From NCBI RefSeq assembly GCF_054482525.1, contig NZ_CM137006.1: 64,000 bases of DNA. One strand, written 5' to 3'. A model generated the notes under the pieces. It saw only the letters and a program-made list of their open reading frames with translations, was not told the origin of the DNA and ran no database searches. Position numbers and translations under genes: made by a program. This document shows positions 47,634 to 63,199 of this stretch, piece by piece. The first letter of the stretch is position 1; each line of letters begins with the position of its first letter.

Positions 47634-47742
47634 TTAATCCAACCCTCTCTGAAAATTAATGCCAGCAGATAAAGCCATGCTGAAACAGAGGCCAGGAATA
47701 AGTACCATCCTGACCATTTGCTCCAGTGCCTTAGCAGCACAC

Positions 47743-47991
47743 TCATGCAGCGTTGCTCACAGGACGATATACACGTTGCTGAACAGGAGGCTTTTTACCC
47801 TGGAACTCTGCCGGGCTTGCTGCCTGACGTTCATCAAGCCAACGCTCAACTTCATCACGGTTCCATGCGCAGCGTTTATCGGTGATATACCAGCGTTTAG
47901 GAAATTCCCCTGCGCGCTCCATACGGTCGATAGTGCTCCATGACAGTGGCACCACCGCCAGGAGTTCCTTCTTACCTAATGCACCTTTCAT
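47743..47991 (-). CDS. AlpA-family excisionase/transcriptional regulator (MerR-like HTH)
   Basis: 82 aa; AlpA-like pattern (…LSWSTIDRMERAGEFPK…WNRDEVERWL). Confidence 0.75.
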   Translation of the reverse strand: MKGALGKKELLAVVPLSWSTIDRMERAGEFPKRWYITDKRCAWNRDEVERWLDERQAASPAEFQGKKPPVQQRVYRPVSNAA

Positions 47992-48040
47992 AAATACCTC
48001 TCTTGGTTGCAGTGCGGCGCGCGTGGCGCCGCGGTGGTGG

Positions 48041-48922
48041 TTACATAGATGTTTCGTTTAATTCTTCCCGACGAACGCTGTAAACGTCGGTGGCTTTTGC
48101 CAGCAGTTCGTCATCATCTGAAAGTTTTTGTGCAATGTATTTGTAAGCCTTATCCAGTTCGGAGACAGTGCTGTAATTCATCGCTGCGCTGGTAAAGGCC
48201 ATCAGCATTTCTTCTGGCTCACGGCTATCCGCTTTACGCGTTTGCTCATCAGGCTTTTTCACTGATTTAGCGTTGATCAGACTGTTCATTCCCGCAGCCG
48301 TAGTCATTTGCGGAGTAATGTCTCGCTCAACGCGCGGTGCCGTTTCCTGTAATTCGTCAGGGGTGTAAACACCGAGAAGTACATCAGGAGCGTGCAGGCG
48401 AGCCCATCGTTTCGTGCAAAGATAGGCAAGTTGCTGGCGCGGATCCTGTTCCCACAATGGAGAGTTACGCACTCCTGCTTGCGCCATACTGATGGTAAGC
48501 TCACGTGGTTCTGCTTCTCCTTTAAGAACTGCTGACACAGTTACCGTCAGATTCGGTGATTTATCTGTTTTGCCGTTAACATTCGACCAGTCACCGCTCC
48601 AGCGATAATTCAGGCGTGTCGCCAGCAGGCTGGAAGAGGATACGACCGCGTTTACCAACTGTGCTTCGTAGCCTAACGTTCCGTTTACCACATGCGTTTT
48701 CTGCGCCACGGCGAAAGGGTTCATTCCCCACTGTGCCGCCTGCATGGTCACCGCCAGGCAATCGGCAGGTTTGCCTTCAAGATGTTTCGGTACAGTCGCT
48801 TTGCTTTGTGACATCAACTCCGCGAAACGCACCAGTTGATTCATGCCCTCGGGGCTGAAGATTGCCGCAGCAGTGCCTACAGTTGCGCCTGGTTGTGATG
48901 TGATTGCGATATCATTGCTCAT
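48041..48922 (-). CDS. Bet/Red-beta family single-strand annealing recombinase
   Basis: 293 aa; alignable by eye to lambda Bet (…ERDITP… and W..P…L…ARL…Y..DE segments). Confidence 0.75.
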   Translation of the reverse strand: MSNDIAITSQPGATVGTAAAIFSPEGMNQLVRFAELMSQSKATVPKHLEGKPADCLAVTMQAAQWGMNPFAVAQKTHVVNGTLGYEAQLVNAVVSSSSLLATRLNYRWSGDWSNVNGKTDKSPNLTVTVSAVLKGEAEPRELTISMAQAGVRNSPLWEQDPRQQLAYLCTKRWARLHAPDVLLGVYTPDELQETAPRVERDITPQMTTAAGMNSLINAKSVKKPDEQTRKADSREPEEMLMAFTSAAMNYSTVSELDKAYKYIAQKLSDDDELLAKATDVYSVRREELNETSM

Positions 48923-49740
48923 ACGTACATATCCTGTTTACGTGCCCAGTCAGGGCGTTTAATAATTTCCACTCCGCCCCATTCATCGTTGATGCGGCAT
49001 TCGTGATAGGTATTCAGATCCCGGCGGAACAGAGCGTGCCCGGCATCGACATCCGGCGCATCCAGCTCGAACACGCGTACCGGATACCGACCACAATCAA
49101 TGCTTTCGCTCACGGCAAGAAAGAAAAAACCATGTGGCTGACCAGTAACCCTCATTGCGCCTTCGCGGTACATTGCGTCCTGCACGTGGTAGCGGAACTC
49201 CTCGATGTGGCGTGCAAAACGGTCCATATCTGTAACCTTTTTCACGTCGACGATCACGTTGTGCTCTTTCAGCCATTTGTCTGGACGAATGCGGCACAAC
49301 TCACCAGTCTCTTCATCGTTCCAGTACATTGATGCTTCGCAGTAACCAGGTGCTTCCAGCATCCAGCGTGCCGCCGGGTGAGCCATTGCGCTATCACGCA
49401 TCAGCTCCAGTTTCCGCCACTGCTCGGCATCAAGTACCGTAATCCCCATATCCGCCACATCACGAAGAAATGCCTCTTCGTCAGCTTTACCTTGTTTCGT
49501 CCGACGATCGAATTTCGGCGAAACAATGAAGCGTTTGTCGAACTCTCCAGGCTCCAGAAGCAGACAGTGCAATGCGGTTCCCATATCCAGTGCAGACTTT
49601 TTCTCTTCGTCTTCTGGTGCTGCCTGAACCCATTTAAGAAGCGCCGGATTCTTGGCAACCATGTCCAGTTGCGACTTACTCACGCCGTCCCCGGCGTGGT
49701 AGTCTTCGTTGCTGATGTCGAAATAAATTCCCGGCTTCAT
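48919..49740 (-). CDS. RecE-like / exodeoxyribonuclease VIII-family PD-(D/E)XK exonuclease
   Basis: 273 aa; N-terminus YHAG…SKSQLD typical of prophage exodeoxyribonuclease VIII-like proteins; translationally coupled to Bet gene. Confidence 0.7.
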   Translation of the reverse strand: MKPGIYFDISNEDYHAGDGVSKSQLDMVAKNPALLKWVQAAPEDEEKKSALDMGTALHCLLLEPGEFDKRFIVSPKFDRRTKQGKADEEAFLRDVADMGITVLDAEQWRKLELMRDSAMAHPAARWMLEAPGYCEASMYWNDEETGELCRIRPDKWLKEHNVIVDVKKVTDMDRFARHIEEFRYHVQDAMYREGAMRVTGQPHGFFFLAVSESIDCGRYPVRVFELDAPDVDAGHALFRRDLNTYHECRINDEWGGVEIIKRPDWARKQDMYV

Positions 49741-50051
49741 GCCGCGTCCCTCTGCCCATCAAGCTGATCAGCCAGATCCCAGCGGGCGATAATTGCCATT
49801 GCCTCGCGCCGGTAGGAATCCATCAGTTCTTCGAACTCAGGGCTGTCTTTAGCTGCTTCCAGCACTTCCTGGCGAACTCCTTTGCCTGTTACAACGTCGA
49901 AAGTTGAGGCCAGTTGATGAAGCCGGATGCTCTCAATCAGTTCAACTTGTCGGTCATATAGCTGTTCTGACAGGCGGTAGTCCTTGTCGAATGCCAGCAT
50001 GATTTTTTGAAGATTTTTCTGCTGATTAACGTTCATTATCAGCCCTCCCAT
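49737..50051 (-). CDS. Hypothetical early-left operon protein (Gam/Kil position)
   Basis: 104-aa ORF (likely start MNVNQQ at 50036) directly upstream of exo. Confidence 0.45.
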   Translation of the reverse strand: MGGLIMNVNQQKNLQKIMLAFDKDYRLSEQLYDRQVELIESIRLHQLASTFDVVTGKGVRQEVLEAAKDSPEFEELMDSYRREAMAIIARWDLADQLDGQRDAA

Positions 50052-50190
50052 ATCTCGTTATCGTTGGCCACATCGCGAGCTTCTTTGCTGACGAAAGCCC
50101 ACTTAATACCTTCCTGTAAGGTGCGGAACTTCCAGCTCATGAATCCGCATGCAGTAACGCAGTACCAACCGTTGATGATTTTCCACTGCA
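50041..50190 (-). CDS. Small protein, possibly CIII-like
   Basis: 49-aa ORF MQWKIINGWYCVTACGF… with GAGG RBS; weak resemblance to lambda CIII N-terminus (MQYAIAGWPVAGC); not in ORF track (under 60 aa). Confidence 0.35.
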
Positions 50191-50297
50191 TAACTTGTTA
50201 CCTCGGTTTGTTACCGTTGAGGTAATGATTATGCGTATTTGGTTTGGTGTCAATAGATATGAGTTAAAAAAATTACCCACAAGGTAATCTTGCTGGC

Positions 50298-50325
50298 AAT
50301 AAAAAAGCCGCCATGAGGCGGCTTA
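50298..50325 (-). terminator. Rho-independent terminator after repressor gene
   Basis: On minus strand: aagccgcctcatggcggctt hairpin followed by ttttttatt. Confidence 0.65.
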
Positions 50326-50344
50326 CTTGCTGAAAACTATAGTT

Positions 50345-50929
50345 TTATTGTTTGCTTTTTTCGTTCTGGTTGATGACAAATTCAATGTAACTTTCGATCT
50401 TTGCTTTCTCGGTTTCGGGTAACAATGCGTAGCGCGAGCGGTCATAGTTGATAGTCGCAGGGTCGTGCGGGTGAATCAGTAATTCATAGCCGTGACGCCC
50501 GAATGCGGATGCAACATTCTCCAGGGTGGAAATGGAAACGCTGACCTCATTGTTTAACAGGCGGCTGATTGTCACCTGGGCGACGCCGGATGCGCGGTGA
50601 AGTTTTCCCTGTGTTGAAAGGTCGCGGCTTTCGCTCATCCAGCGTTCCAGGTTGTGAGCCGCCAGCTGACCAATGTCGCTTGGGCCGACAGGCTGAAAAC
50701 CTTCCTGAGAAAGCGAGCGATCGATATCAAGCCAGTTACGGGGTTTATTGGCGGCAGCTTCAATTTTTCGCGCAACCTGGTCGCCGATAACCTTCTTACC
50801 AAGAGCCCAGCGGTTTACCAGATTTGCCTGAGTTCCAAGTTTTTCTGCCATCCGCGTCTGAACACCATTGAATTCACGGTCGATCAAGTCGTTGAGATTT
50901 TGCCTGCGGACGTCCTGGATACTTTTCAT
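50345..50929 (-). CDS. CI-like prophage repressor with two HTH segments, no S24 peptidase domain
   Basis: 194 aa; HTH-like segments (TRMAEKLGTQANLVNRW and GVAQVTISRLLNNE); divergent from Cro-like gene; no Ala-Gly/Ser-Lys autocleavage motifs seen. Confidence 0.7.
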   Translation of the reverse strand: MKSIQDVRRQNLNDLIDREFNGVQTRMAEKLGTQANLVNRWALGKKVIGDQVARKIEAAANKPRNWLDIDRSLSQEGFQPVGPSDIGQLAAHNLERWMSESRDLSTQGKLHRASGVAQVTISRLLNNEVSVSISTLENVASAFGRHGYELLIHPHDPATINYDRSRYALLPETEKAKIESYIEFVINQNEKSKQ

Positions 50930-51083
50930 TTTCTGGAAAATCGCCTCATATATGAATCAGTAGATGATTCAATTTAAAGCAATATTACCCAACAGGTAAA
51001 TGCACCCCATAGGTAACTATCCTTGATTTTTGTTACCTTATGGGTGAATATTTATTATCTGAAATAAATATCAGGCAATAGCT
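50930..51083. promoter_or_regulatory. Immunity-region divergent promoter/operator (PRM/PR equivalent)
   Basis: Contains TTACCCAACAGGTAA (50985-50999) and near-copy TTACCTTATGGGTGA (51033-51047). Confidence 0.7.
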
Positions 51084-51314
51084 ATGAGCGATAACGGACA
51101 TTTCGATTTCAAAAAGCACTGGCTTGCACTTACTCCGGATGAGCGTGAAGCCTTCGCACAGGAAGCCGGAACGACGAGTCACTATATACAGACTCACTTA
51201 ACAGGTAAGCGCAAAATGCCAGGTAAGGTATTGATGAATGGGCTTTTTAAAGCCTGTAAAACAAGACAATGGCTGCGCTCAAAAGCAGAACTGGCATACT
51301 TCTTCTACTCATGA
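51084..51314 (+). CDS. Cro/CII-like HTH regulator
   Basis: 76-aa ORF divergent from repressor, followed by terminator. Confidence 0.55.
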   Translation: MSDNGHFDFKKHWLALTPDEREAFAQEAGTTSHYIQTHLTGKRKMPGKVLMNGLFKACKTRQWLRSKAELAYFFYS

Positions 51315-51336
51315 TATCCAGCCACAACCCTCTGTA

Positions 51337-51360
51337 GACCGCCACCCGGCGGTCTTTTCA
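51337..51360 (+). terminator. Rho-independent terminator (tR1-like) after cro-like gene
   Basis: gaccgccacccggcggtc hairpin followed by ttttca. Confidence 0.6.
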
Positions 51361-51462
51361 TATCTATTCGTACCTCAAAGGTAATAAAAAACCAAATCTG
51401 GTTGATCAAATTTTCCAATTGTGCAAAATAGCCAATATCAATAACAAAAAGGGGCGGAAAAA

Positions 51463-51675
51463 TTGAAGATAGTAACCAGAATGGAGGCCGCAAAAGCCGG
51501 GTTAAATCGCTATTTCACAGGAAAGCGGTGCCGTCACGGCCATCTCTCTGAAAGGTATGTTCTGAACGGAACATGTGTTGAATGTGCAATGAATAGCGCC
51601 AACCGCCATCGTAATGAATTTGCTTGTGCACTAAAGAGTGCAAGAGGGGAAACCTATGGCAAGCAGCTGGATTAA
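51463..51675 (+). CDS. Small Cys/His-rich (zinc-binding?) phage protein
   Basis: 70 aa; C-x-H-G-H…C-x2-C pattern; 3' end overlaps O-like gene. Confidence 0.45.
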   Translation: MKIVTRMEAAKAGLNRYFTGKRCRHGHLSERYVLNGTCVECAMNSANRHRNEFACALKSARGETYGKQLD

Positions 51676-52486
51676 GGTTGAAGTTATCACTCCTGATAAA
51701 CCTGAAATTTTTCAGATAGCAGAAATTCTGGGTATTGATCCAGATGCTGTTCTTGGAAAGCTGGTTCGTATATGGGCATGGGCTGACCAGCAAACAATAG
51801 ACGGTAACGCTGGCAGCGTTACAAAAGGAGTACTTGATAGACTCGCTTTTATTACAGGATTTGCTGACGCCCTCATTAGCGTCGGATGGCTTGCTTATCA
51901 TGACGGCAAACTAATTCTTCCAAACTTTGAGCGACACAATGGAGAATCATCGAAAAAACGTGCACTTACGAATAGAAGAGTGGCAGAGCATCGAAAACGA
52001 GTAACGCAAAAAGTAACGCCAACAGCGTTACAAAAGGAGTTACCAGAGGAAGAGGAAGAGGAAGATATATATAAAACCCCACACATAGCGCACGTGCGCG
52101 AGGGTGCTCCGACCAGTGAAGCGAACAGTACGCCGTTGCAGGTGGCAGAACCTGAATTTCTGGATGGCCTGAGTGAACCCATCGGGAAATTTCCGATGAC
52201 AGATGGCTGGCTACCGTCGCCAGATTTTCGGCGGCGTGCTGCGCTGTGGGGAACGGCCCTGCCGGAACCGGAATTTACACCTGCTGAACTTGCTGCATTC
52301 CGGGATTACTGGATGGCTGAGGGCAAAGTGTTCACGCAGGTTCAGTGGGAACAAAAATTCGCCAGGCACGTAAATCATATCAGGGGAAAATCAAAAAATG
52401 CCGGGAAAAGCGATGAGCTTGACTGGAATAACACTGACTGGATAGAAGGGGTGTGGGATGAAATCAACTCCAGAACTTCTCAATGA
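51656..52486 (+). CDS. Replication initiator (O-like) with DnaT-like C-terminal domain
   Basis: ORF 51638..52486 (start at MASSWIKVEV assumed); internal iterons; acidic EEEEEED linker; followed by P-like gene. Confidence 0.7.
   Translation: MASSWIKVEVITPDKPEIFQIAEILGIDPDAVLGKLVRIWAWADQQTIDGNAGSVTKGVLDRLAFITGFADALISVGWLAYHDGKLILPNFERHNGESSKKRALTNRRVAEHRKRVTQKVTPTALQKELPEEEEEEDIYKTPHIAHVREGAPTSEANSTPLQVAEPEFLDGLSEPIGKFPMTDGWLPSPDFRRRAALWGTALPEPEFTPAELAAFRDYWMAEGKVFTQVQWEQKFARHVNHIRGKSKNAGKSDELDWNNTDWIEGVWDEINSRTSQ
51800..52080. promoter_or_regulatory. Putative phage replication origin (iterons + AT-rich segment inside O-like gene)
   Basis: Repeated GTAACGC/GCGTTAC motifs; 17-bp exact repeat agcgttacaaaaggagt at ~51813 and ~52024; then gaagaggaagaggaagatatatataaaa. 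Confidence 0.55.
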
Positions 52487-53234
52487 GTACGATCGCTTAC
52501 GTGAGCATGGTGTTGCTGTGCATGAAGAGCGGCGTGACAGCAATGGCAAAAAGGAGCAGGTTGCTAGAATTTTCAATGAACTATTTGTCCAGTTACAGGC
52601 TGCATTTCCTGCAAGCGTTTCGACCATAAGGGAGCAGAACAAACTTAATGAATTCCGTAAGCAATGGATGCTTGCGTTTCTGGAGAATGGGATCACTACA
52701 ATGGAACAGGTTAACGCTGGTATGCGCCACGCCCGCGCCAGTGAATCTCCGTTCTGGCCGTCGCCAGGGCAATTCATCAAGTGGTGCAAAGACAGCAAGA
52801 TGGTTCTTGGCGTCACCATTGACGATGTGATGGCGGAGTTTCACCGGTACAGCAAGGAAAAAAGTTTATATCCTGGTGGTCCCGAAAGATTCCCGTGGCG
52901 ACATCCGGTTATGTACTGGGTCGTATGTGATACCCGCCGTGCAATGTATCAGCGCCAGCTTAGCGAGATTGAGGTTGAGAAACACGCGCGCAGGCTGCTC
53001 GATGATTGGGCGAAAAAGGTGGCTTCCGGACAGCAGATACCCGATCCGGTGATCAGCATACAGGCAAAGCCAGAACCCATGAGTACGCCTCCTGACACTG
53101 GGAGAGACGTTTACCATCCACCAGGGCGAAGTTTCGGGTGCATGCCTAACGCCGCCACCCTGGGGGGAATAACACCGGCGCAGTGGCTGATAGAGGAATA
53201 CAGGCGGGGAAAGGCGGCAGGATTTATCAAGTAA
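52458..53234 (+). CDS. Replication protein P-like helicase loader
   Basis: 258 aa; strong similarity to lambda P as I recall it (…FPASV…REQNKLNEFRKQWMLAFLENGITTMEQVNAGMR…). Confidence 0.85.
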   Translation: MKSTPELLNEYDRLREHGVAVHEERRDSNGKKEQVARIFNELFVQLQAAFPASVSTIREQNKLNEFRKQWMLAFLENGITTMEQVNAGMRHARASESPFWPSPGQFIKWCKDSKMVLGVTIDDVMAEFHRYSKEKSLYPGGPERFPWRHPVMYWVVCDTRRAMYQRQLSEIEVEKHARRLLDDWAKKVASGQQIPDPVISIQAKPEPMSTPPDTGRDVYHPPGRSFGCMPNAATLGGITPAQWLIEEYRRGKAAGFIK

Positions 53235-53351
53235 TACCAGCGCGATAGCGCATTTTTTTACGCCTACATGATTACCTGTTGGGTAATAAAATGTTCTAAT
53301 CTCTATTGATTTCATGTCTTATGTGGTTTTTAATTACCTAAGGGGTAAATC

Positions 53352-53696
53352 ATGAGAAAACAGATACAGGCTCTTGGTCGACTCAAAACAGGCCAAATGA
53401 ACAAAACAGAATCTGCGTATTGCCAGCACCTTGAGCTGCGTAAACGTGCAGGAGAAATCGTCTGGTATCGATTTGAGGGTATCAAGCTGCGGTTAGCTGA
53501 CAACACGTTCTATACGCCCGATTTTGCTGTGATGCTCGCCACCGGCGAGATGGAACTGCACGAAGTGAAAGGTTTCTGGACCGACGACGCCAGGGTGAAA
53601 ACCAAAGTCGCCGCAGATCAGTATCCGTTCCGAATCATCGGGGTAACGGTTAAACCAAAGAAAGCAGGTGGTGGCTGGAACATCGAAGAGTTCTGA
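53352..53696 (+). CDS. Small PD-(D/E)XK-motif protein (DUF1064-like)
   Basis: 114 aa; YTPDF … ELHEVKG resembles PD…(D/E)xK. Confidence 0.5.
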   Translation: MRKQIQALGRLKTGQMNKTESAYCQHLELRKRAGEIVWYRFEGIKLRLADNTFYTPDFAVMLATGEMELHEVKGFWTDDARVKTKVAADQYPFRIIGVTVKPKKAGGGWNIEEF

Positions 53697-53757
53697 AGCG
53701 ACGATCTTTTTAGTTATCAATGTAATCAATAAGTTATGTGGATAAGCGAGGGTAAAG

Positions 53758-54276
53758 ATGGAAAGTAATATCAAAGGGTTAGTTGCCGCCGGGCATGAGA
53801 TGGCTTCGGAACTGAAAGCAGAATGTGGTGCCGTTGATATGCGCAGTGTGGCAAAGCTGATCAGCGATTTGGCAACGCAACTGGAAGTGCAACTGGTGCG
53901 TGCTAATGCGCTGGCGGCGGAGAATGAGCTGGCTCGTAAGGCAGTTCAGGCATTCTGCGATGTTGTTGGCGACAACACCGAGGTTATCGCTGAGGTGGTT
54001 GGGCGAGATGGCGTTCTGGTTATTTTGGAGGCCATGAAGGCAACAGGAAATATGCCAGCCACCGATGCTTTCCTGGCTGAAGTGCGGGCGCAGGGCGTGG
54101 ATGCTGCTATAGAAGCTGCAAAAAATCTGGTGGCCCAAGAATATGAGTATAAGGATTTCAAAGCGGCGCAGAGTGATTGCTGTATGCACCCTGGTTCAGA
54201 TCTGGTAGGGAAGGTTGAAATGACTGAGTGGTTAGTTGACTTTGCTGCCCAGCTTCGCAAAGGAGGCAACCAGTGA
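53758..54276 (+). CDS. ead/Ea22-like phage protein
   Basis: 172-aa acidic coiled-coil-like ORF in nin-like region. Confidence 0.45.
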   Translation: MESNIKGLVAAGHEMASELKAECGAVDMRSVAKLISDLATQLEVQLVRANALAAENELARKAVQAFCDVVGDNTEVIAEVVGRDGVLVILEAMKATGNMPATDAFLAEVRAQGVDAAIEAAKNLVAQEYEYKDFKAAQSDCCMHPGSDLVGKVEMTEWLVDFAAQLRKGGNQ

Positions 54277-54761
54277 GCGAAATTAATTACCAGGCACTGC
54301 GTGAGGCGGCGGAACGTGCAATTCCAGCAATGGAACGCCTGTTAATGTTGCCAGCTGATGATGATTTGTTAAGTGAACAGGAACTTAAAGATTACGGTGT
54401 GGATATTGATGCGCTCAACGCCTTCAAATTTCTGGCCGGACCAGAAACCGTGCTGGCACTACTGGATGAACGGGAAAGGAACCAGCAATACATCAAATCC
54501 CGCGACCAGGAGAACGAGGATATTGCGCTAACGGTAGGGAAGTTGCGCGTTGAGCTTGAGGCAGAAAAACAGCGGGCAAAGGATCTGTTTATGGAAAATG
54601 CTCGGCTTAAGTCAGGTATAGCCGGTCTGATACACCTCGGTATTCGATATGCAGATGTTGATGTCATGAAAATTGCTGGAGATGCCCAGCTTTCTACCCC
54701 ATGCACTGACAGCATCATAAACAGCATTGCAACAGGCATTCGCATCAACGGAGGTGAGTAG
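54273..54761 (+). CDS. ead/Ea22-like phage protein
   Basis: 162 aa; MSEINYQALREAAE… N-terminus typical of Ea22-like proteins; overlaps previous gene stop. Confidence 0.5.
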   Translation: MSEINYQALREAAERAIPAMERLLMLPADDDLLSEQELKDYGVDIDALNAFKFLAGPETVLALLDERERNQQYIKSRDQENEDIALTVGKLRVELEAEKQRAKDLFMENARLKSGIAGLIHLGIRYADVDVMKIAGDAQLSTPCTDSIINSIATGIRINGGE

Positions 54762-54841
54762 TGCGTGTGGCATGTATTGGCTTGTTACCGTACCCGACTC
54801 GTTTTTGGGCTTCTGCGCTAATTGCAAAGCCACAGGTCCTG

Positions 54842-54937
54842 ATGGCTGACAACATCACCCCAGCACCAAAGCGCCGCCATACCGGTATTGCAGCGGCACG
54901 ACGAGCAGCAAAGAGACGCAGGAGAGCAAAGCGATGA
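54842..54937 (+). CDS. Arg-rich micro-ORF (A)
   Basis: MADNITPAPKRRHTGIAAARRAAKRRRRAKR; its TGA overlaps the next ATG (ATGA); start could be GTG at 54761. Confidence 0.35.
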   Translation: MADNITPAPKRRHTGIAAARRAAKRRRRAKR

Positions 54938-55110
54938 AAAACCGTAAGGCAAAACGACTTTTTTTACAGCGACCTGTGCGTGTGGTGGAGCTGGTTATTA
55001 GCAACCATAAGATAGCGGTACTCCATCCATTTGGTCAGGTGGCTTTTGCCGCAAAGCGTAAGCCTACTGCGTCACAGAACAGGCGGAAGAAAGGGTACGC
55101 AGTAAGATGA
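54934..55110 (+). CDS. Basic micro-protein (B), paralogous N-terminus MKNRKAK
   Basis: 58 aa; ATGA-coupled to next ORF. Confidence 0.4.
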   Translation: MKNRKAKRLFLQRPVRVVELVISNHKIAVLHPFGQVAFAAKRKPTASQNRRKKGYAVR

Positions 55111-55295
55111 AAAACCGTAAAGCAAAGATTCTGTTAGTTCGTAGAAACGCTCCTGGCGTCTGGCAGTGGGTGAGACTCAGCAACCGACGGATGGGGTTGA
55201 TGAAATATTACGGGATGATGGATTGTGGTTTTTGCAAAAAGCCCAGCGCGGCGCAAAACCGCTGGAAAAACCATTTGCGCACTAAAGGAGAGTGA
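55107..55295 (+). CDS. Basic micro-protein (C), paralogous N-terminus MKNRKAK, Cys pair
   Basis: 62-aa ORF in track; same MKNRKAK start as ORF B. Confidence 0.5.
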   Translation: MKNRKAKILLVRRNAPGVWQWVRLSNRRMGLMKYYGMMDCGFCKKPSAAQNRWKNHLRTKGE

Positions 55296-55296
55296 T

Positions 55297-55812
55297 ATGG
55301 CGTTAACACACCGCGAACTCTGTCAGATTGCGTACAAGTTCCTTAAGCGCAACGGGTTCAAGGTTTGTTTTCATGACCGCTTTATAGCTGTAACCAGTAC
55401 CGGAGAACAGCCAGATGCTATGGGGTTCAGAAATTCAGCATCATGCCTGATAGAGGCGAAGTGTTCTCGTGCTGATTTGTTGGCAGATAGAAAAAAGCGT
55501 TTTCGTAAAAATCCGTCTCTTGGAATGGGCGACTGGCGATTCTTTATTAGTGAGCCGGGAATTATTTCAATTGAGGATTTACCACCTGGCTGGGGATTAC
55601 TTCACGTTGTTAACGGAAGAGTACGGAAAGTACATGGGTGGCCCAAGGGTAATTGCTGTTGGGGTAACCCTGAAGATAAACCTTTTATTGGGAATAAGCA
55701 GGTTGAATGCGATTACATGTTATCTGCATTAAGGCGCATGGAGTTGAGAGGGCACCTTAATGAAATATATGACGGTGTAATTGTTAATAAGAAAGAAGGA
55801 AACGCGGCATGA
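55297..55812 (+). CDS. Hypothetical protein with PD-(D/E)XK-like motif
   Basis: ORF 55225..55812, start at MALTHREL assumed (RBS ggag); motif …QPDAMGF…CLIEAKCS…. Confidence 0.5.
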   Translation: MALTHRELCQIAYKFLKRNGFKVCFHDRFIAVTSTGEQPDAMGFRNSASCLIEAKCSRADLLADRKKRFRKNPSLGMGDWRFFISEPGIISIEDLPPGWGLLHVVNGRVRKVHGWPKGNCCWGNPEDKPFIGNKQVECDYMLSALRRMELRGHLNEIYDGVIVNKKEGNAA

Positions 55813-56204
55813 TCACTATTACCAATAAGAAACAGTATCCCAGCGAGCAATATCTTAATGAGCTGATCACCAACATAGAGTTTGCTGCAAGGGCACCAGT
55901 TGAAGTCGTGAGAGCAATGGCAGCAGAGCTACAGAAGCGGCGCGAAGCTGATAGCGCAGAACCAGTTGCTTATATTTTCAAACATCCGGCCGGGAAATTA
56001 TTCTGGGCTTTAACGGATGAAAGTAATAAAGAGCAAGCGGACGTTATTCCTGTTTATGCCGCCCCTCCAGTGCCAGTAGTACCTGAAGAAAAACCAATGC
56101 CTAACCCTCTTAAAATGTACGCGGTCGATGCTGTTGCCGCTATTGCAGAGGTGAGAGGCTGGAATGCCTGCCGCGCCGCCATGCTTCAGGGTAAAGGAGA
56201 GTGA
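55809..56204 (+). CDS. Hypothetical phage protein
   Basis: 131 aa, overlapping start/stop with neighbours. Confidence 0.45.
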   Translation: MITITNKKQYPSEQYLNELITNIEFAARAPVEVVRAMAAELQKRREADSAEPVAYIFKHPAGKLFWALTDESNKEQADVIPVYAAPPVPVVPEEKPMPNPLKMYAVDAVAAIAEVRGWNACRAAMLQGKGE

Positions 56205-56205
56205 T

Positions 56206-56415
56206 ATGGCTATTGCCGCAAGTTACACCATGCATCTCTATTGTGACTGCCGCCAGTGTACGGAAGGTGTATATCCAGTGCCAGACTTCGGTGAGTATAT
56301 CGGTACGTCATGGTCTGGTTGTGCAAAAGAGGCCCGTAAAGACGGGTGGCGAATAAGCGCCGACAAAACACGTGCTTTTGCGCCCGGGCATAAAGTTTTG
56401 AGGATTAACACATGA
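56206..56415 (+). CDS. Hypothetical Cys-rich small phage protein
   Basis: 69 aa from ATG at 56206 (ORF track 56164..56415); CDC…C…C pattern. Confidence 0.4.
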   Translation: MAIAASYTMHLYCDCRQCTEGVYPVPDFGEYIGTSWSGCAKEARKDGWRISADKTRAFAPGHKVLRINT

Positions 56416-57215
56416 CCACTATTACCAAAGAACGTATTGAATTGTTCATTAAAAATCCGCTTGAAAACGGGCTTACTCGTGGCGAACAAATGGAACTGGC
56501 ACGAATTGCACTGGCATCACTGGAACGCGAACAGATTCGCCACGAGCATGCCAAATGGTCTGACTCCACATTTGGCTGCGTTGGCCCCATTGGTCCACTG
56601 AAACACCTCTCAAAAGAGGCACTGGAAGCCGCAGCCGAACCAGACGATCTTAGCGAGTGGGCTGATATGCAGTTTCTGTTGTGGGATGCACAGCGCCGTG
56701 CTGGCATCAGCGATGCTGAAATTAACGTTGCTATGGAAGATAAATTGAAGATCAACATGGAGCGCCAGTGGCCTGAGCCAAAAGATGGTGAGCCTCGCTT
56801 GCACATTAAAGAACCCGGCAACTCTCCGGTAATTCCGGATGGTTTATCCACGGTATGCGCTGAGGCTTATCAGGTTGTAGGAGTTATGGCAGATGCGCTT
56901 GGTGTATTCGGTGATGCAGCAGTACAGAACGTTCTGGATAACCTGTCACAGCAAAAACTTGTTCACAGAGATGTGCTGCCGTTCTCGCTTCCGGCAACTC
57001 CGGATGGTTGGATAAGCTGTAGTGATCTAATGCCGGAAGACACCAAAATGTTACTGGCATTTAGTCAAGGTGAAATCGTGGCAGCATATTGGAACTGGGT
57101 TGTAAATCCAATTGATTACAAAAAATATAGAGCTTTCACGTATTTATCAGGAAATATCTTGGATGACGTAACCCACTGGATGCCGCTACCAGAACCGCCG
57201 CAGGAGGTGAAGTGA
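56412..57215 (+). CDS. DUF550/DUF551-like nin-region protein
   Basis: 267 aa; C-terminal …WISCSDLMPED…HWMPLPEPP typical of DUF551 as I recall it. Confidence 0.5.
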   Translation: MTTITKERIELFIKNPLENGLTRGEQMELARIALASLEREQIRHEHAKWSDSTFGCVGPIGPLKHLSKEALEAAAEPDDLSEWADMQFLLWDAQRRAGISDAEINVAMEDKLKINMERQWPEPKDGEPRLHIKEPGNSPVIPDGLSTVCAEAYQVVGVMADALGVFGDAAVQNVLDNLSQQKLVHRDVLPFSLPATPDGWISCSDLMPEDTKMLLAFSQGEIVAAYWNWVVNPIDYKKYRAFTYLSGNILDDVTHWMPLPEPPQEVK

Positions 57216-57565
57216 TGGACTATTCACAGTTAAGTGATTTTGAAATTAACAGAATGGTAGGAGACATAATTTTTAAAGGCCTTTGGGCGTGTAAACCGGA
57301 AACATCAGGGAATAACACCAACAAATGGTATTACGGAAATACTGATACAACTTTTGAGCCATTAAACCCTTTACCTGACTACTGCAATAATCCATCGGAT
57401 GCATGGCCTATTATTGTTGATAATAAAATCAGTCTAACCTGCCACCAATCTCGCGGTGAGTGGTCAGCTGTTTTTAATGTCGAGAACATTTGCTTTCATG
57501 CGAATAATCCACTCCGAGCCGCCATGATTGTATTTCTCATGATGCAGGAAAATCAGAATGGCTAA
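57212..57565 (+). CDS. NinX-like protein
   Basis: 117 aa; N-terminus MDYSQLSDFEIN resembles NinX/DUF2591 family. Confidence 0.5.
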   Translation: MMDYSQLSDFEINRMVGDIIFKGLWACKPETSGNNTNKWYYGNTDTTFEPLNPLPDYCNNPSDAWPIIVDNKISLTCHQSRGEWSAVFNVENICFHANNPLRAAMIVFLMMQENQNG

Positions 57566-57896
57566 ATCAGCAGCAGAGCGCAAAGCCGCTCAGAGAGCCA
57601 GACAAGCTGCATCTGGTGTGCGTAAGCTGGAGATTGTGCTTGATGCTCAGGAAATTGAAATGCTTGAGCGTAACTGTGCCGCACGTCGCCCCGGGCGTGC
57701 GCCTTACGAATTTGGTGAGTATATAGCGTTACTGATCCGCCAGGATGATGCACGCGTGCGCGGGCGTATAAAATCGATCAGTAGAAAACGTTGCGGTAAG
57801 TGCGGCGAGAGAGTTCCCGTTAATTCATGCCCGTGTAATGGTGACTCGCAATGCTGGGTGACTAAAGGCTGGTATGAAACGAAATTAATAGTGTGA
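57558..57896 (+). CDS. Small basic protein with C-terminal Cys cluster (possible regulator)
   Basis: 112 aa; CGKCGERVPVNSCPCNGDSQC zinc-ribbon-like; last gene before terminator and terminase. Confidence 0.45.
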   Translation: MAKSAAERKAAQRARQAASGVRKLEIVLDAQEIEMLERNCAARRPGRAPYEFGEYIALLIRQDDARVRGRIKSISRKRCGKCGERVPVNSCPCNGDSQCWVTKGWYETKLIV

Positions 57897-57945
57897 CATG
57901 TCACGAGTAGATTATGCATGATGAATTTGACGGGTTTTGAATACT

Positions 57946-57971
57946 GCCGCCAACTATGGCGGCTTTATTTT
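57946..57971 (+). terminator. Rho-independent terminator upstream of terminase small subunit
   Basis: gccgccaactatggcggc hairpin followed by tttatttt. Confidence 0.6.
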
Positions 57972-58014
57972 GCATGGTACTATTACCACAACGGTAACTA
58001 TTACCACGGTGGTT

Positions 58015-58611
58015 ATGATGCCTGCTGAACCTAAAACCTATAAACGCAAATCAACGCAATTTAAGCCACTAACAGCAATGCAGGAGGCTTATTGCCAGTC
58101 ATACATCAAAACGCCTGAAAACCAGACTCAGGCAGCGATTAACGCAGGATTCTCCCCAAATACAGCGGCAGTTAAAGCCAGTGTCATGATGCGCGATGAA
58201 CGCATTCAGAAACGGATTGCCGAGTTGATGGAGGAGCGCAACAAACGAATGCGCGTCAGTGCTGATTACGTTCTCATGCGCCTGGTGGAGATCGACCAGA
58301 TGGACGTTATCGACATCCTCAACGACGATGGGAGCCTTAAACCAATCCGTGAGTGGCCGAAAATCTGGCGCACTACGCTTAGTGGCTTTGATCTGTCATC
58401 GACCATCATGAACATGAACGAGGATTCGATAGAGACAATCCTCAAAAAAATTAAATGGCCTGACAAGGTGAAGAACCTTGAGCTGATTGGTAAGCATGTT
58501 GATGTCAATGCGTTCAAAGAACGTCTGGATGTTAATGTGAATGTGACAATTGCTGATCGCATAGCGGCAGCCAGGAAGAGACTGAAAGAACGTCAGGATG
58601 GCAATCAGTGA
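58015..58611 (+). CDS. Terminase small subunit
   Basis: ORF 57937..58611; start placed after terminator at MMPAEPK; sequence resembles small-terminase proteins; directly precedes large subunit. Confidence 0.7.
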   Translation: MMPAEPKTYKRKSTQFKPLTAMQEAYCQSYIKTPENQTQAAINAGFSPNTAAVKASVMMRDERIQKRIAELMEERNKRMRVSADYVLMRLVEIDQMDVIDILNDDGSLKPIREWPKIWRTTLSGFDLSSTIMNMNEDSIETILKKIKWPDKVKNLELIGKHVDVNAFKERLDVNVNVTIADRIAAARKRLKERQDGNQ

Positions 58612-60083
58612 CAGATACAGCGTTATCTCCTGAAGAGCAGTTAATTGAGGATATTGCAGGGTTCACTCACGATCCGCTTGGCTATGCCCTCTATGCGTTC
58701 CCGTGGGGGGAAGAGGGGACTGAACTGGCACATGCTACCGGCCCACGTCAGTGGCAGGCCGATGCGTTCCGAGAGATACGTGATCACCTGCAGAATCCAG
58801 AGACGCGTTATCAGCCGCTTATGCTGGCACGTGCTTCTGGTCACGGTATTGGTAAATCCGCATTCATCTCAATGCTCATCAACTGGGGCATGTCCACTTG
58901 CGAGGATTGTAAGGTCGTGGTGACCGCCAACACCGACAACCAGCTACGAACGAAGACCTGGCCGGAAATTATCAAGTGGTCGAACCTTGCTATCACGAAA
59001 GACTGGTTTACCTGTACCGCTACCGCGATGTACAGCAATGACCCTGGGCACGACAAGCGGTGGCGGGCTGACGCAATACCCTGGTCTGAGCACAACACTG
59101 AGGCATTCGCCGGACTACACAACGAGCGCAAACGCATCATCGTGGTGTTTGATGAAGCGTCGAACATTGCGGATCTGGTGTGGGAAGTTGCCGAGGGTGC
59201 GCTTACGGACGAAGACACTGAGATTATTTGGGTGGCGTTCGGAAACCCTACACGTAACACCGGGCGTTTTCGCGAATGTTTCCGCAAATATAAACACCGC
59301 TGGAAAACTGCGCAGATTGACAGCCGGACGGTGGAAGGCACTAACAAACAGCAGTTGCAGAAATGGGTTGATGACTACGGGGAAGACAGCGACTTCGTTA
59401 AAATCCGTGTGCGTGGCATATTCCCTGATGCATCTGAATTGCAGTTTATCCCTACCGGTCTTACTGACGAGGCAATGAAACGGGTGGTAACCGCTGCGCA
59501 GGTTGCACATGCTCCGGTGATAATCGGCGTTGACCCGGCATACTCCGGCGTTGATGACGCTGTGATATACCTGCGGCAGGGGCTACACAGTAAGGTGCTG
59601 TGGACTGGCAACAAGACTACCGACGATCTGATTATGGCGAAGCGTATCGCTGACTTTGAAGACCAGTATCAGGCTGACGCGGTGTTCATCGACTTCGGTT
59701 ACGGAACCGGTTTGAAGTCAATCGGTGACGGCTGGGGTCGTACATGGCAACTTGTTCCGTTCGGTGGCGCGTCTACTGACCCGCAGATGCTCAACAAGCG
59801 TGGGGAGATGTTCAACTCATGCAAGACATGGCTGAGGCTCGGTGGCATGCTGGATGACCAGGAAACAGCGGACGACCTGTCGGCAGCAGAGTACAAAGTT
59901 CGAGTGGACGGTAAAATCGTTATCGAACCGAAGGAAGATATCAAAGAGCGACTTGGGCGTTCTCCTGGTAAAGGCGATGCGCTACTGCTGACGTTTGCGT
60001 TCCCTGTGTCGAAGCGTCTGCGAATTCCCGGTCAGCAGAACCAGCAAGGCAAGGCCATCACAGATTACGATCCCTATGCTTAA
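58608..60083 (+). CDS. Terminase large subunit (ATPase + nuclease)
   Basis: 491 aa; Walker A-like GHGIGKS; overlaps small subunit stop. Confidence 0.85.
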   Translation: MTDTALSPEEQLIEDIAGFTHDPLGYALYAFPWGEEGTELAHATGPRQWQADAFREIRDHLQNPETRYQPLMLARASGHGIGKSAFISMLINWGMSTCEDCKVVVTANTDNQLRTKTWPEIIKWSNLAITKDWFTCTATAMYSNDPGHDKRWRADAIPWSEHNTEAFAGLHNERKRIIVVFDEASNIADLVWEVAEGALTDEDTEIIWVAFGNPTRNTGRFRECFRKYKHRWKTAQIDSRTVEGTNKQQLQKWVDDYGEDSDFVKIRVRGIFPDASELQFIPTGLTDEAMKRVVTAAQVAHAPVIIGVDPAYSGVDDAVIYLRQGLHSKVLWTGNKTTDDLIMAKRIADFEDQYQADAVFIDFGYGTGLKSIGDGWGRTWQLVPFGGASTDPQMLNKRGEMFNSCKTWLRLGGMLDDQETADDLSAAEYKVRVDGKIVIEPKEDIKERLGRSPGKGDALLLTFAFPVSKRLRIPGQQNQQGKAITDYDPYA

Positions 60084-60129
60084 TCCGCTGGTGGGGATAA
60101 TGTCGTTGATATCCTCTGGTGAGGATAAA

Positions 60130-60156
60130 ACAAAGCCAGCTCATAGGCTGGCTGTT
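60130..60156 (-). terminator. Terminator of reverse-strand moron transcript
   Basis: On minus strand: agccagcctatgagctggct hairpin followed by ttgtttt. Confidence 0.5.
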
Positions 60157-60173
60157 TGTGACATGTCACAGAG

Positions 60174-60596
60174 CTAGAAAATAATTTCATCAAATGCAGC
60201 ATTTATTGCCTTTGCTTCGCTAATGGCGCCTTGTTTATCGACAATAGCTTTTTTACCAAGCACCTCGGCAAGGCACTGTAGCTTCATGTTGTATAAGTGT
60301 TCGCTCATGTAATCATTATCACTTTTTGCTTTAGCGCAAACAGAGCGAGAAATATCAAACACATCGCCTTTTTCCATTTCAGAACGTTGTGCTGTTATCC
60401 AGTCATGGAACGTAACGCTAGTACCATGGTCTTCGCTAAGAGTTAACCCGGTCAGTCCCTCACTCTGAATTACTTCGTAATGCATTTCATTACCAGCAAA
60501 AACGCCATAAAAAACGCAGTCTTCAGCCTGAACGATACGAGAATATTTTAATGGCCATTCATTTAGATACTTAGCCAACATATCAATTGTTTTCAT
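60174..60596 (-). CDS. Hypothetical 140-aa protein (reverse-oriented moron)
   Basis: Opposite strand to flanking terminase and portal genes; no recognisable motif; own terminator. Confidence 0.55.
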   Translation of the reverse strand: MKTIDMLAKYLNEWPLKYSRIVQAEDCVFYGVFAGNEMHYEVIQSEGLTGLTLSEDHGTSVTFHDWITAQRSEMEKGDVFDISRSVCAKAKSDNDYMSEHLYNMKLQCLAEVLGKKAIVDKQGAISEAKAINAAFDEIIF

Positions 60597-60794
60597 GATC
60601 TCACCTTAAAAAAATGCCCGGCGAACCGGGCGAACTGGAAGCAATGAGTTATGCCTTCCGTGGCTGTACGGGTTTACAGCATGAAGTCATCGCAATGGCG
60701 TCCTGCTGTAAAAAGGGCGGTGATAGTCCTTCAAGGGAAACCATCACCGCCAAGCACCTGGAACTTCTGGCATCACGGTCCTTAGGCGTGATTC

Positions 60795-60871
60795 TGGCGC
60801 GGCATGCAGGATTCGAACCTGCGACCAACCGCTTAGAAGGCGGTTGCTCTGTCCAACTGAGCTAATGCCAC
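60795..60871 (-). tRNA. tRNA-Arg (anticodon UCU), phage-encoded
   Basis: Hand-folded cloverleaf: acceptor GUGGCAU/AUGCCGC, D-arm GCUCAGUUGGACAGAGC, anticodon stem ACCGC/GCGGU with loop CUUCUAA, T-arm CGCAGGUUCGAAUCCUGC, 3' GCCA encoded. Confidence 0.85.
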
Positions 60872-61298
60872 AACGCTGAGAGCACTTAGCCTGTTAAGGC
60901 GCCACACTTTGTCGCGGCTCCATAAATGCTCTCATCGTTGTACCCTCGTCTCTTCCGAGGTGTCACACCGAATCGCCGGGATGGTGAATCCCCGTGCGCG
61001 GAATAAAACCGCTCGACTTGCACATTCCGGCTACCTGGTTCGTTTGCCCGAGCAAGGGAGGGTGCCCCTTAAACGTATCCAGACCGCTATCGGCGCATGT
61101 GCCATACGCCGTACTGCTCAAAATAAAAGCTCACCCCACCTGTTCAATTTAACGACAAGCCAGTCAGATTAGTAACTGGAGTGAATTCTTTGGTTACCTG
61201 AAAGGTAATAATTCGTGCGTTAAATGTCAACTGTCTACGATAAATAAATCATATGTGGTTAAATTGGTAATAATTTAATTGCGTACGGAGTCATTGAT
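60872..61298. promoter_or_regulatory. ~430-bp non-coding region upstream of portal; likely promoters for tRNA/moron (leftward) and portal operon (rightward)
   Basis: No credible ORF; contains TTACCTGAAAGGTAA at 61204-61218 and AT-rich -10-like sequences. Confidence 0.45.
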
Positions 61299-61505
61299 AT
61301 GTGCATGGGTAGCTCACCATCAGTGCCTGCAACACCAGAAGTTCAGGCAGCACCACAGGAGCAGGATGCCGCCGTTGTTGATGCCCGCGACGAAGAAACT
61401 CGTCGCCGTCGCGCTGCTGCTGGTCGTAGTTCTACGCTGCTTACCGGTTCTCAGGGCGACACATCAACCGCTAATACCAGCGGTAAAACGCTGCTTGGTC
61501 AGTAA
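61299..61505 (+). CDS. Small Ala/Gln/Arg-rich protein preceding portal
   Basis: 68 aa; RBS context ggagtcattga-ATG nearly identical to that of portal gene. Confidence 0.5.
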   Translation: MCMGSSPSVPATPEVQAAPQEQDAAVVDARDEETRRRRAAAGRSSTLLTGSQGDTSTANTSGKTLLGQ

Positions 61506-61519
61506 CCGGAGTCATTGAA

Positions 61520-63199
61520 ATGGCGGAAACAACTAAAGAGCGATTGAACAAACAGTTCGCACAACTTGAAAGCGAGCGTCAGTCGTTCGAGCCGCACTGG
61601 CGCGAGTTGAGTGATTACATCAACCCGCGTGGTTCCCGCTTTCTGACTTCTGAGGTCAACCGTAACGATCGGCGCAATACACGCATTATTGATTCGACCG
61701 GGACTATGGCGGCGCGCACTCTCGCCAGCGGCATGATGTCAGGCATCACAAGCCCCGCGCGTCCGTGGTTTCGCCTGGCTACGCCAGATCCTGAAATGAT
61801 GGATTATGGCCCTGTTAAGTTGTGGCTTGAGGCAGTTCAGAACCGCATGAACGATATGTTCAATAAGTCGAATCTCTACCAGTCTCTTCCGCAGTTATAC
61901 GGAAGCCTCGGCACATACAGCACTGGTGCAATGGCAGTGCTGGAGGATGACGAGGACATCATTCGCACAATGCCATTCCCGATAGGCAGTTACTACCTGG
62001 CTAACTCACCTCGTGGCAGTGTTGACACCTGTTTTCGCAAGTTCTCTATGACTGTTCGTCAGCTTGTTCAGGAGTTCGGGCTAAATAACGTCAGCGAATC
62101 CGTAAAAAGCATGTGGGAAAGCGGCACCTACGAGAAGTGGATCGAAGTGATGCATTCGGTTTACCCGAACATTGACCGCGATACATCGAAGCTGGATAGC
62201 AAGAACAAGCCATTCAAATCGGTTTATTACGAGGTTGGTGGAGATAACGACAAGTTGTTGCGTGAGTCCGGATTCGATGAGTTTCCAATTATGGCTCCGC
62301 GCTGGGAAGTTAACGGCGAAGATGTTTATGGATCATCATGCCCGGGTATGCTGGCGCTTGGACCTGTTAAGGCATTGCAGCTTCTCCAGAAGCGCAAGTC
62401 GCAGTTGATTGATAAAGCCACCAATCCGCCGATGGTTGCTCCGACTTCCCTCAAGAATCAGCGCGCCTCCCTTCTTCCTGGCGACATCACGTATATCGAT
62501 CAGATTACTGGTCAGGATGGCTTCAGGCCTGCTTATCTGGTTAACCCCAGTACAGCAGATTTGGTGGCAGACATTCAGGACACTCGTCAAATCATTAACA
62601 GCGCCTACTTTGTCGATCTGTTCATGATGTTGCAGAACATCAATACCCGCTCGATGCCTGTTGAAGCGGTGATCGAAATGAAAGAAGAAAAACTTCTGAT
62701 GTTGGGGCCGGTTCTGGAGCGTCTGAACGACGAATGTCTTAATCCTCTCATTGACCGCGCTTTCTCGATGATGGTGCGCAAAAACATGCTGCCGCCACCG
62801 CCTGACGCGATGGAAGGCATGCCCCTGAAGGTCGAATACATTTCCGTCATGGCTCAGGCGCAGAAGTCTATCGGCCTGTCCAGTCTGGCGTCCACGGTTA
62901 ACTTCATTGGTCAACTTGCGCAAGCGAAACCAGAAGCTCTCGACAAACTCAACGTTGATCAGGCGATCGATGCATTCGCTGATATGTCCGGAGTGTCTCC
63001 AACCGTCATTGTTCCGCAGGAACAGGTTGAGCAGGCTCGCCAGCAACGGGCACAGCAACAACAGCAGCAACAAATGATGGCGATGGGGATGGCGGCGGCA
63101 CAGGGGGCCAAGACGCTAAGCGAAGCTAAAACTTCGGATCCGAGTGTGTTGTCAGCTATGGCGAATGCAGTTAGTGGTCAGGGTGGGCAATCACAATGA
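61520..63199 (+). CDS. Portal protein
   Basis: 559 aa; follows terminase large subunit; C-terminal Gln/Ala-rich tail; portal-like size and position. Confidence 0.75.
   Translation: MAETTKERLNKQFAQLESERQSFEPHWRELSDYINPRGSRFLTSEVNRNDRRNTRIIDSTGTMAARTLASGMMSGITSPARPWFRLATPDPEMMDYGPVKLWLEAVQNRMNDMFNKSNLYQSLPQLYGSLGTYSTGAMAVLEDDEDIIRTMPFPIGSYYLANSPRGSVDTCFRKFSMTVRQLVQEFGLNNVSESVKSMWESGTYEKWIEVMHSVYPNIDRDTSKLDSKNKPFKSVYYEVGGDNDKLLRESGFDEFPIMAPRWEVNGEDVYGSSCPGMLALGPVKALQLLQKRKSQLIDKATNPPMVAPTSLKNQRASLLPGDITYIDQITGQDGFRPAYLVNPSTADLVADIQDTRQIINSAYFVDLFMMLQNINTRSMPVEAVIEMKEEKLLMLGPVLERLNDECLNPLIDRAFSMMVRKNMLPPPPDAMEGMPLKVEYISVMAQAQKSIGLSSLASTVNFIGQLAQAKPEALDKLNVDQAIDAFADMSGVSPTVIVPQEQVEQARQQRAQQQQQQQMMAMGMAAAQGAKTLSEAKTSDPSVLSAMANAVSGQGGQSQ

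Follow-up and report, generated by a model that had tools for sequence, protein, structure and literature searches.

When several very small and highly basic open reading frames (ORFs) run almost directly into a gene for a nuclease-like protein, one may ask whether the small proteins and the nuclease form one functional system or are neighbors in a mosaic phage region. This question is raised by a stretch of 64,000 nucleotides (nt) from contig NZ_CM137006.1 of the NCBI RefSeq assembly GCF_054482525.1 (hereafter the window, meaning the whole stretch analyzed), in which four ORFs are located head-to-tail on the plus strand, namely ORF A (54761..54937, 58 amino acids (aa), isoelectric point (pI) 12.0), ORF B (54934..55110, 58 aa, pI 12.0), ORF C (55107..55295, 62 aa, pI 11.3), and ORF D (55297..55812, 171 aa). 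The initial annotation of this region described three basic micro-ORFs chained by ATGA overlaps, with the stop codon of C abutting the 171-aa ORF, and suggested that the microproteins may bind nucleic acid and modulate the adjacent nuclease-like protein, or else belong to a host-takeover cassette. Reading of the window together with the ORF listing revealed that all four ORFs are present as described, and their coordinates and junctions bear out the chained arrangement. The suggested modulation was not supported by related loci, considering that D lacks micro-ORFs in 47 of 80 of them, that C lacks D in 41 of 79, and that the junctions are of a generic kind. A-C do not appear to be part of a dedicated microprotein-nuclease system with D. 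The four ORFs are probably separate mosaic accessory cassettes, similar to those of exo-xis or nin regions, which lie in an early operon belonging to a temperate enterobacterial phage and have been shuffled independently of each other.

Independent assortment and boundary linkers of the cassettes

The gene preceding A in the window (54273..54761, plus strand, phrog_368/250) belongs to the ead/Ea22 family and is so annotated in an identical plasmid record (NZ_CP067237). Among 80 loci anchored on D, micro-ORFs were located upstream of D in 33 (20 with the order A-B-C-D, 11 with A-C-D, and 2 with C-D), and in the other 47 an Ea22-like gene abuts D directly. When 79 assessable loci anchored on C were examined, D was the next gene in 38 and a different gene in 41, the usual replacement being a gene for a 69-aa Cys-rich protein (56206..56415 in the window, plus strand, phrog_926), which follows C in approximately 40% of the C-anchored loci. 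Within phage 933W's exo-xis region, the order is Ea22-like gene, A, and a C-type gene, and D is absent. The obligate co-occurrence expected for a nuclease with a dedicated small partner was therefore not observed from either side, nor in 933W. In addition, D alleles are 98-100% identical and the adjoining C alleles 50-100%, and no basic micro-ORFs were found upstream of distant D homologs. The relationship between A and the genes starting with MKNRKAK (B, C, and their relatives) is much closer: an MKNRKAK gene follows A in 77 of 77 assessable A loci, and C is also found without A. Since A always precedes an MKNRKAK gene while C and D assort independently, the real unit appears to be A plus one or two B/C-type genes, with D as a separate cassette.

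The boundaries between these genes are tight. The GTG start codon of A lies one base into the TAG stop codon of the upstream Ea22-like gene (a 1-base overlap), A/B and B/C are joined by ATGA overlaps, the C/D junction reads TGA-T-ATG with a single base between the stop codon of C and the ATG of D, and D is joined to the next ORF (131 aa, 55809-56204) by another ATGA overlap. Duplicated and translationally coupled basic microproteins had been regarded as unusual; the overlaps are real but not peculiar to the micro-ORFs, because each of ten successive junctions between 53758 and 57565 is either an overlap of 1-8 nt or a 1-nt gap. Chained overlaps are thus a generic property of the operon.

What is conserved at the cassette boundaries, independent of the neighboring genes, is a short linker composed of a Shine-Dalgarno (SD) sequence, a stop codon, and a start codon. 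The 24 nt before the ATG of D fit CGCAyyAAAGGAGAGTGAkATG in 80 of 80 D loci, whichever gene precedes, and encode the end of either C (LRTKGE stop, the last six codons of C) or the Ea22-like protein (IRIKGE stop). A 17-nt linker, AAAGGAGAGTGATATGG, occurs twice in the window against 0.14 copies expected, once at the C/D boundary (55284..55300) and once before the Cys-rich gene (56193..56209), both on the plus strand, and because the two copies are identical, unrelated upstream genes share the same KGE end. The MKNRKAK genes have a junction of a second type (ACGACGAGCAGCAAAGAGACGCAGGAGAGCAAAGCG-ATG, 54898..54936, plus strand), which contains the SD sequence of B and is open in all three frames. 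The same approximately 36 nt, in the form ...GCAGGAGAGCAAAGCG-ATG, precede MKNRKAK starts in most loci; depending on the frame in which they are translated, they encode the tail of A or that of an Ea22-like protein (...GEQSDEKP). Hybrids of the D-type and MKNRKAK-type junctions exist as well.

Considering that the window from approximately 45040 to its end resembles phages of the phiV10/TL-2011b/HEMP4 type, with integrase, RecT, replication, and terminase genes, A-D can be placed in a prophage. TL-2011b, HEMP4, and phiV10 match 64-74% of a 22-kb query (40% for phiV10) at 95.5-99.6% identity, and A-D are located in the early operon, with the replication genes on one side and the genes for DUF551 and DUF2591 proteins, a regulator, and terminase on the other. 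P1-like plasmids such as pSBF22b contain a 2.1-kb segment of this region at 100% identity, and parts of the segment were detected in 392 phage records as well as 2,732 of 5,426 complete Escherichia coli genomes. The exact window sequence of A is present on 120 public contigs and those of B, C, and D on at least 1000 each. Overall, the cassettes occur in phiV10/TL-2011b-like prophages, P1-like plasmids, and Shiga toxin (Stx) phages including 933W, and they show what characterizes mosaic early-operon cassettes: a co-directional early operon, independent presence or absence, and conserved boundary sequences.

Under this reading, the cassettes would form part of a long, co-directional, and translationally coupled early operon, in which the SD-stop-start linkers may re-initiate translation and the same linkers may serve as joints for homologous recombination that reshuffles the cassettes. 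If linkers act both as re-initiation sites and as recombination joints, identical gene ends (KGE stop) and ATGA chains would arise without any dedicated functional coupling. We tentatively suggest, at somewhat less than even odds, that the constrained basic termini allow the microproteins to bind nucleic acid, which is suggested by charge alone, or else an acidic target in the host, and that they do so soon after infection or induction. For D, the most likely function appears to be the cleavage of DNA that is branched or damaged while the phage recombines or replicates, a role to which we give about even chances. The microproteins and D would then act independently of each other.

Several observations concern the surroundings of the cassettes. 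The right-hand 19 kb of the window (about 45040-64000) constitute a podovirus-type prophage that begins near its own integrase gene, and the sole phage match of the first 45 kb is a Klebsiella phage record (81% identity) carrying guaA/guaB-like genes. The 131-aa ORF after D seems chimeric, with residues 1-98 matching phrog_6847 and the C-terminus matching other families; it ends in the same linker (...MLQGKGE) and is labeled 'incomplete' by the NCBI annotation pipeline PGAP. The 69-aa Cys-rich protein begins MAIAASYTMHLYCDC..., and at the homologous position the 933W RefSeq record oddly calls the product 'released from the phage upon host infection'. Scanning of 54761-55812 detected no promoter-like site and no same-strand terminator-like site, and no Rfam match was found between 54000 and 56500 at E<=1. 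A structured RNA was considered as an alternative explanation for 54740-55310 and was ruled out by RNA folding, which revealed no excess of structure (z=+0.93).

Coding constraint in the basic micro-ORFs

B (starting MKNRKAKRLF) and C (starting MKNRKAKILLV) had been proposed to be paralogs, which is confirmed by their 37% identity (BLASTP, E=5e-10) and by matches of both over the whole profile of phrog_1380 (6.5e-23 for B and 1e-40 for C), a PHROG family labeled 'unknown function'. Profile searches identified 179 clusters of this family at 90% identity, all from Enterobacteriaceae and named 'hypothetical' or 'prophage protein', none of which has a Pfam domain; the members are approximately 60-aa proteins of pI 11-12 from prophages. 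M1, N3, R4, A6, S25, N26, N51, and R52 are invariant in 28 sequences of the family. The conserved segments in C are MKNRKAK, (I/V)SN(R/H)(R/K), and SAAQNRWKNH, and members with identities down to 33% retain MKNRKAK, (I/V)SN(R/H)(R/K), and SAAQNR(W)K. The Cys pair of C noticed initially is present (Cys40 and Cys43), although it is not conserved across the family.

Selection on the micro-ORFs was assessed by the ratio of nonsynonymous to synonymous substitution rates (dN/dS) among distinct nucleotide alleles collected from 245 related loci, namely 25 for A, 11 for B, and 28 for C. All length differences among these alleles are multiples of 3, and for each of the three ORFs the called frame has the lowest dN/dS, the other two frames giving 0.8-1.4. 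Conservation of the reading frame, which the initial annotation had left to be established, is evident for B and C and less pronounced for A (dN/dS of about 0.5). For B, dN/dS is 0.26-0.29 overall, 0.085 in codons 1-8, and 0.13 in codons 45-58. For C, it is 0.34-0.40 overall and 0.17 in codons 46-62, and codons 1-8, which include MKNRKAK, vary only synonymously (proportions of nonsynonymous and synonymous differences, pN=0 and pS=0.13). The core of both proteins has values of 0.41-0.48. B/C alleles that share as little as 33-60% identity keep frame, length, and motifs. As judged by these substitution patterns, B and C are conserved paralogous microprotein genes whose basic N- and C-terminal segments appear to be under strong selection and whose core is fast-evolving. 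A run of seven T in codons 9-11 of B (54959..54965, plus strand) is a frameshift hot spot: B is shifted at this run, by a gain or loss of one T, in three IMG/VR loci, and two database proteins (P0337 and P0346) are out of frame after it. These length variants could result from slippage-prone mutation or from sequencing error.

A is not a third paralog, as comparison of the A family with the B/C family by hhalign gave a probability of 0.3%. It matches phrog_13831 (again labeled 'unknown function') over its full length (5e-40), and a profile search detected 79 clusters, all named ones from Escherichia; its family profile has no match among PDB sequences. The N-terminal half is conserved (MRVAcIGLLPyPtRfW), and the Arg-rich tail ends in ...KRRHTGIAAARRAAKRRRRAKR. 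In the called frame, the dN/dS of A is 0.50-0.53 against 0.8-1.3 in the other frames, and its variable sites are distributed almost evenly over the codon positions (8, 10, and 14). All three frames are open along the tail (54850-54937), and three independent 1-nt deletions place the tail into an acidic frame ending ...DEKP (...QRHDEQQRNAGEQNDEKP), whose stop codon falls within the codons for MKNRKAK in the gene that follows; 95 contigs carry one of these variants. In-frame indels of 21 and 6 nt were also observed, and alleles with 53-56% identity retain both the N-terminal motif and the tail. A is thus an unrelated third basic microprotein gene just upstream of a B/C-type gene, carrying the ribosome-binding site of that gene, and it appears from its alleles to be only weakly constrained.

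The net charges of A, B, and C are +14, +15, and +14, respectively. The AlphaFold2 (AF2) model of C, an alpha-beta3-alpha arrangement, is of low confidence (predicted local distance difference test, pLDDT, of 68), and the best Foldseek match of this model in the PDB (E of 0.65) is meaningless. NCBIfam gave no matches for any of seven ORFs, and Pfam gave nothing meaningful for the B/C family. The sole match of the B/C profile among PDB sequences is the non-significant MS2 coat protein (E=3), in which SSAQNRK of the RNA-binding strand resembles SAAQNRWK at residues 45-53 of C; this is regarded as chance. A likeness of 'ILLVRR' in C to the N-terminus of CsrA was considered and dropped as no family member has a CsrA Pfam match. 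The idea that A, B, and C are pieces of one decayed longer gene was also rejected, as B and C each have a complete family domain, and longer database 'fusions' of the B/C family proved to be upstream-extended calls or deletion chimeras. No database match ties A, B, or C to arginine-rich-motif RNA-binding antiterminators of the lambda N type, considered for the tail of A and the C-terminal helix of C, boxB-like sites not being part of this search. A literature search for the motif 'MKNRKAK' returned no papers.

ORF D, a PD-(D/E)XK-fold protein

The 171-aa protein had been credited with a PD-(D/E)XK-like motif (...EQPDAMGF...LIEAKCS...), and both alignment and structure prediction support this assignment. 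D matches phrog_631 and phrog_9263 over its full length (9e-94 and 1e-121; PHROG label 'unknown function'), and its family comprises 2,616 representatives (E<=1e-3). Searches with the D sequence alone gave no match in Pfam, NCBIfam, PADLOC, or the PDB (noise only in the last). In an alignment of 38 relatives with 34-56% identity, P39, D40, D60, G78, R81, and E137 are invariant and H5, E37, E53, K55, F61, D64, K67, R70, W99-G-L, S143, and R146 near-invariant, with E37, E53, and K55 conserved in at least 90%. E37, P39-D40, E53-x-K55, and D60 form a candidate active site. The AF2 model is confident (pLDDT 93.4, predicted template modeling score 0.87) and shows the core alpha-beta-beta-beta-alpha-beta fold, with the conserved D...(D/E)xK motif on strands 2 and 3. 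The closest relative of D, by both solved structure and sequence profile, is 3DNX (SPO1766), a member of the MmcB-like family, which the D family profile matches with E=3.4e-4 via xPD...IECKxSRxDFxAD; archaeal Hjc is matched weakly. Profile comparison thus points to a large phage-borne family that is closest to MmcB-like proteins, though outside their Pfam model, with MmcB-like and Hjc-like nucleases as nearest relatives. Distant D homologs are also located in phage early regions or adjoin terminase genes.

Public annotation of these genes is incomplete. In a plasmid record that is 100% identical to this segment (L001, NZ_CP067237), PGAP calls neither A nor B, in agreement with the supplied track, in which C is the only annotated micro-ORF, and it covers only the first 179 nt of D (5025-5203), marked as a 'frameshifted' pseudogene. 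This label was rejected, as the ORF is intact and aligns end-to-end with distant homologs, all 53 of 53 alleles have 516 nt, and dN/dS, for which D was the positive control, is 0.05; it is therefore an annotation artefact, and the treatment of D looks like systematic mis-annotation. D is an intact and strongly conserved protein, for which a PD-(D/E)XK nuclease fold and candidate catalytic residues are predicted.

Some relatives of D have unusual contexts. In two public proteins (P0012 and P0072), the Ea22-like gene or the gene before it is fused to a C-terminal portion of D that starts at residue 87 or 117; both are deletion derivatives, from which the catalytic half of D is missing together with A, B, and C. 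A D homolog with 59% identity (P0007, L248/L249) is located directly downstream of a gene for an HU-family DNA-binding protein, beside an integrase gene.

Alternative explanations and related systems

It could be argued that the adjacent nuclease has dedicated partners in the microproteins, be they modulators, inhibitors, antitoxin-like proteins, or a DNA-targeting subunit, with translational coupling setting the stoichiometry. C and D indeed adjoin with a 1-nt gap, D follows C in about half of the C loci and C precedes D in about 40% of the D loci, phrog_9263 (230 aa) aligns as C followed by D, and several distant D homologs are called with basic N-terminal extensions, one having an HU-like gene upstream. 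We nevertheless regard this explanation as very improbable: D without any micro-ORF and C without D each account for more than half of the loci (47/80 and 41/79), 933W combines A with a C-type gene and no D, basic micro-ORFs are missing upstream of distant D homologs, D has an unchanged linker before it whatever the preceding gene and tight junctions are operon-wide, and no co-variation is seen between the nearly uniform D alleles (98-100%) and the divergent C alleles beside them (50-100%). A narrower proposal, that A and a B/C-type gene constitute a conserved two-gene module of nucleic-acid-binding microproteins in the 933W exo-xis region, phiV10-like prophages, and P1-like plasmids, which would bind RNA or DNA via the constrained basic termini and alter host or phage expression, is unlikely in our judgment. 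If true, it would represent a new class of phage regulatory microprotein, for example one that shifts the lysis-lysogeny balance or Stx-phage induction.

Another possibility is that some or all of the micro-ORFs are non-functional by-products of DNA that is kept as linker, ribosome-binding, or recombination sequence, and A is where it is most plausible. The dN/dS of A is about 0.5 with variable sites spread over the codon positions (8, 10, 14), its tail is open in all frames and was moved to the acidic frame by three independent 1-nt deletions, one of them common, its last approximately 36 nt are conserved even when read as part of another gene, and both A and B are left uncalled by PGAP. Set against this are the values for B and C (0.26-0.40, and 0-0.17 at the termini, with synonymous changes present), the retention of frame, length, and motifs by B/C alleles at 33-60% identity, and, for A itself, the lowest dN/dS in the called frame, indels of 21 and 6 nt that stay in frame, and a motif and tail kept at 53-56% identity; taken together, we think it improbable that the micro-ORFs are by-products. 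It is doubtful, too, that the microproteins are host-directed growth inhibitors or take-over factors, acting on a host protein (RNA polymerase, the ribosome, or the division machinery) and not on nucleic acid. Other small early phage proteins act on host proteins, and a fast, mosaic core with conserved termini would fit adaptation to a variable target. Yet the searches run revealed no similarity to known inhibitor, anti-defense, or defense families, the core dN/dS is 0.41-0.48 and not above 1, and a net charge of +14 to +15 in approximately 60 aa is more typical of nucleic-acid binders. The location in the earliest-transcribed accessory region also speaks for host take-over; exo-xis genes are reported to affect the lysis-lysogeny decision (PMC8614690).

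Several points weigh against the reading preferred here, that of independently shuffled accessory cassettes, or against parts of it. The adjacency of C and D in about half of the C loci leaves room for a functional link, as does the resemblance of phrog_9263 to a C-D fusion. The dN/dS values are pooled pairwise Nei-Gojobori estimates without correction for phylogeny, and the alleles were drawn from overlapping 'best 80' lists that favor close relatives; the evidence for B and C as genes is consistent despite this bias. Translation of A, B, and C is deduced from their evolution only, and A may be dispensable or decaying, given its dN/dS of about 0.5 and at least 3 independent frameshift variants. 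No match of A, B, or C in Pfam, NCBIfam, PADLOC, or the PDB points to a target. D itself falls outside Pfam thresholds, and its activity is a prediction from the modeled fold and candidate residues.

With regard to significance, prophages that are very common in E. coli appear to carry two or three micro-genes that are real, under selection, and under-annotated, and A and C-type genes are present in Stx phages such as 933W, in an exo-xis region reported to influence induction. In the identical record, the NCBI pipeline skips A and B, and D, an intact gene with a nuclease fold, is labeled a frameshifted pseudogene. A large phage family of about 2,600 cluster representatives, for which Pfam has no model, can now be given a predicted fold and candidate active site, and the locus illustrates cleanly how SD-stop-start linkers mark the borders of cassettes in mosaic phages. 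In practical terms, the value is modest: these genes are ordinary phage accessory 'dark matter', with no new system or mechanism.

Comparison with known systems is consistent with this assessment. Searches of A-D and of the two ORFs downstream against PADLOC defense components found nothing at E<=0.1, and the PHROG families (phrog_1380, phrog_13831, and phrog_631/phrog_9263) name A-D without explaining their role. MmcB has been described as a PD-(D/E)XK endonuclease with a protective role against mitomycin C in Caulobacter (PMC9578287), and 3DNX, the closest profile relative of D, belongs to its family (Pfam PF06319). However, D in the window does not match PF06319 even at E<=10, and among the 38 relatives none matches at E<=0.001 and 9 of 38 at E<=0.1. 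D is moreover phage-borne and located in an early operon, whereas MmcB is encoded by an SOS-regulated chromosomal gene, and D has a longer chain than MmcB-like proteins with an extra conserved C-terminal part (W99-G-L, E137, S143, and R146). Similarity to archaeal Hjc (PF01870) is weak: D has no match, 3 of 38 relatives match at E<=0.001, and the helix-1 Glu of Hjc has no conserved counterpart in the D family, in which H5 and L8 are conserved instead, so that D agrees with Hjc neither by hidden Markov model nor by this residue. Phage resolvases encoded in nin regions can be likened to D by analogy of position, a resolvase role being putative. For the exo-xis region, only Ea8.5 has a solved structure, and A-D are not among the exo-xis proteins modeled in the cited paper (Orf60a, Orf63, Orf61, Orf73, Ea22, Orf55, and Gp05). 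The cassette in the window is located in a podovirus-type prophage between replication and terminase genes, while the exo-xis region lies between exo and xis. A close parallel to the micro-ORFs is the lambda/Stx exo-xis region downstream of ea22, whose accessory genes are likewise small and mosaic and in which A and C-type genes directly follow an Ea22-like gene in 933W.

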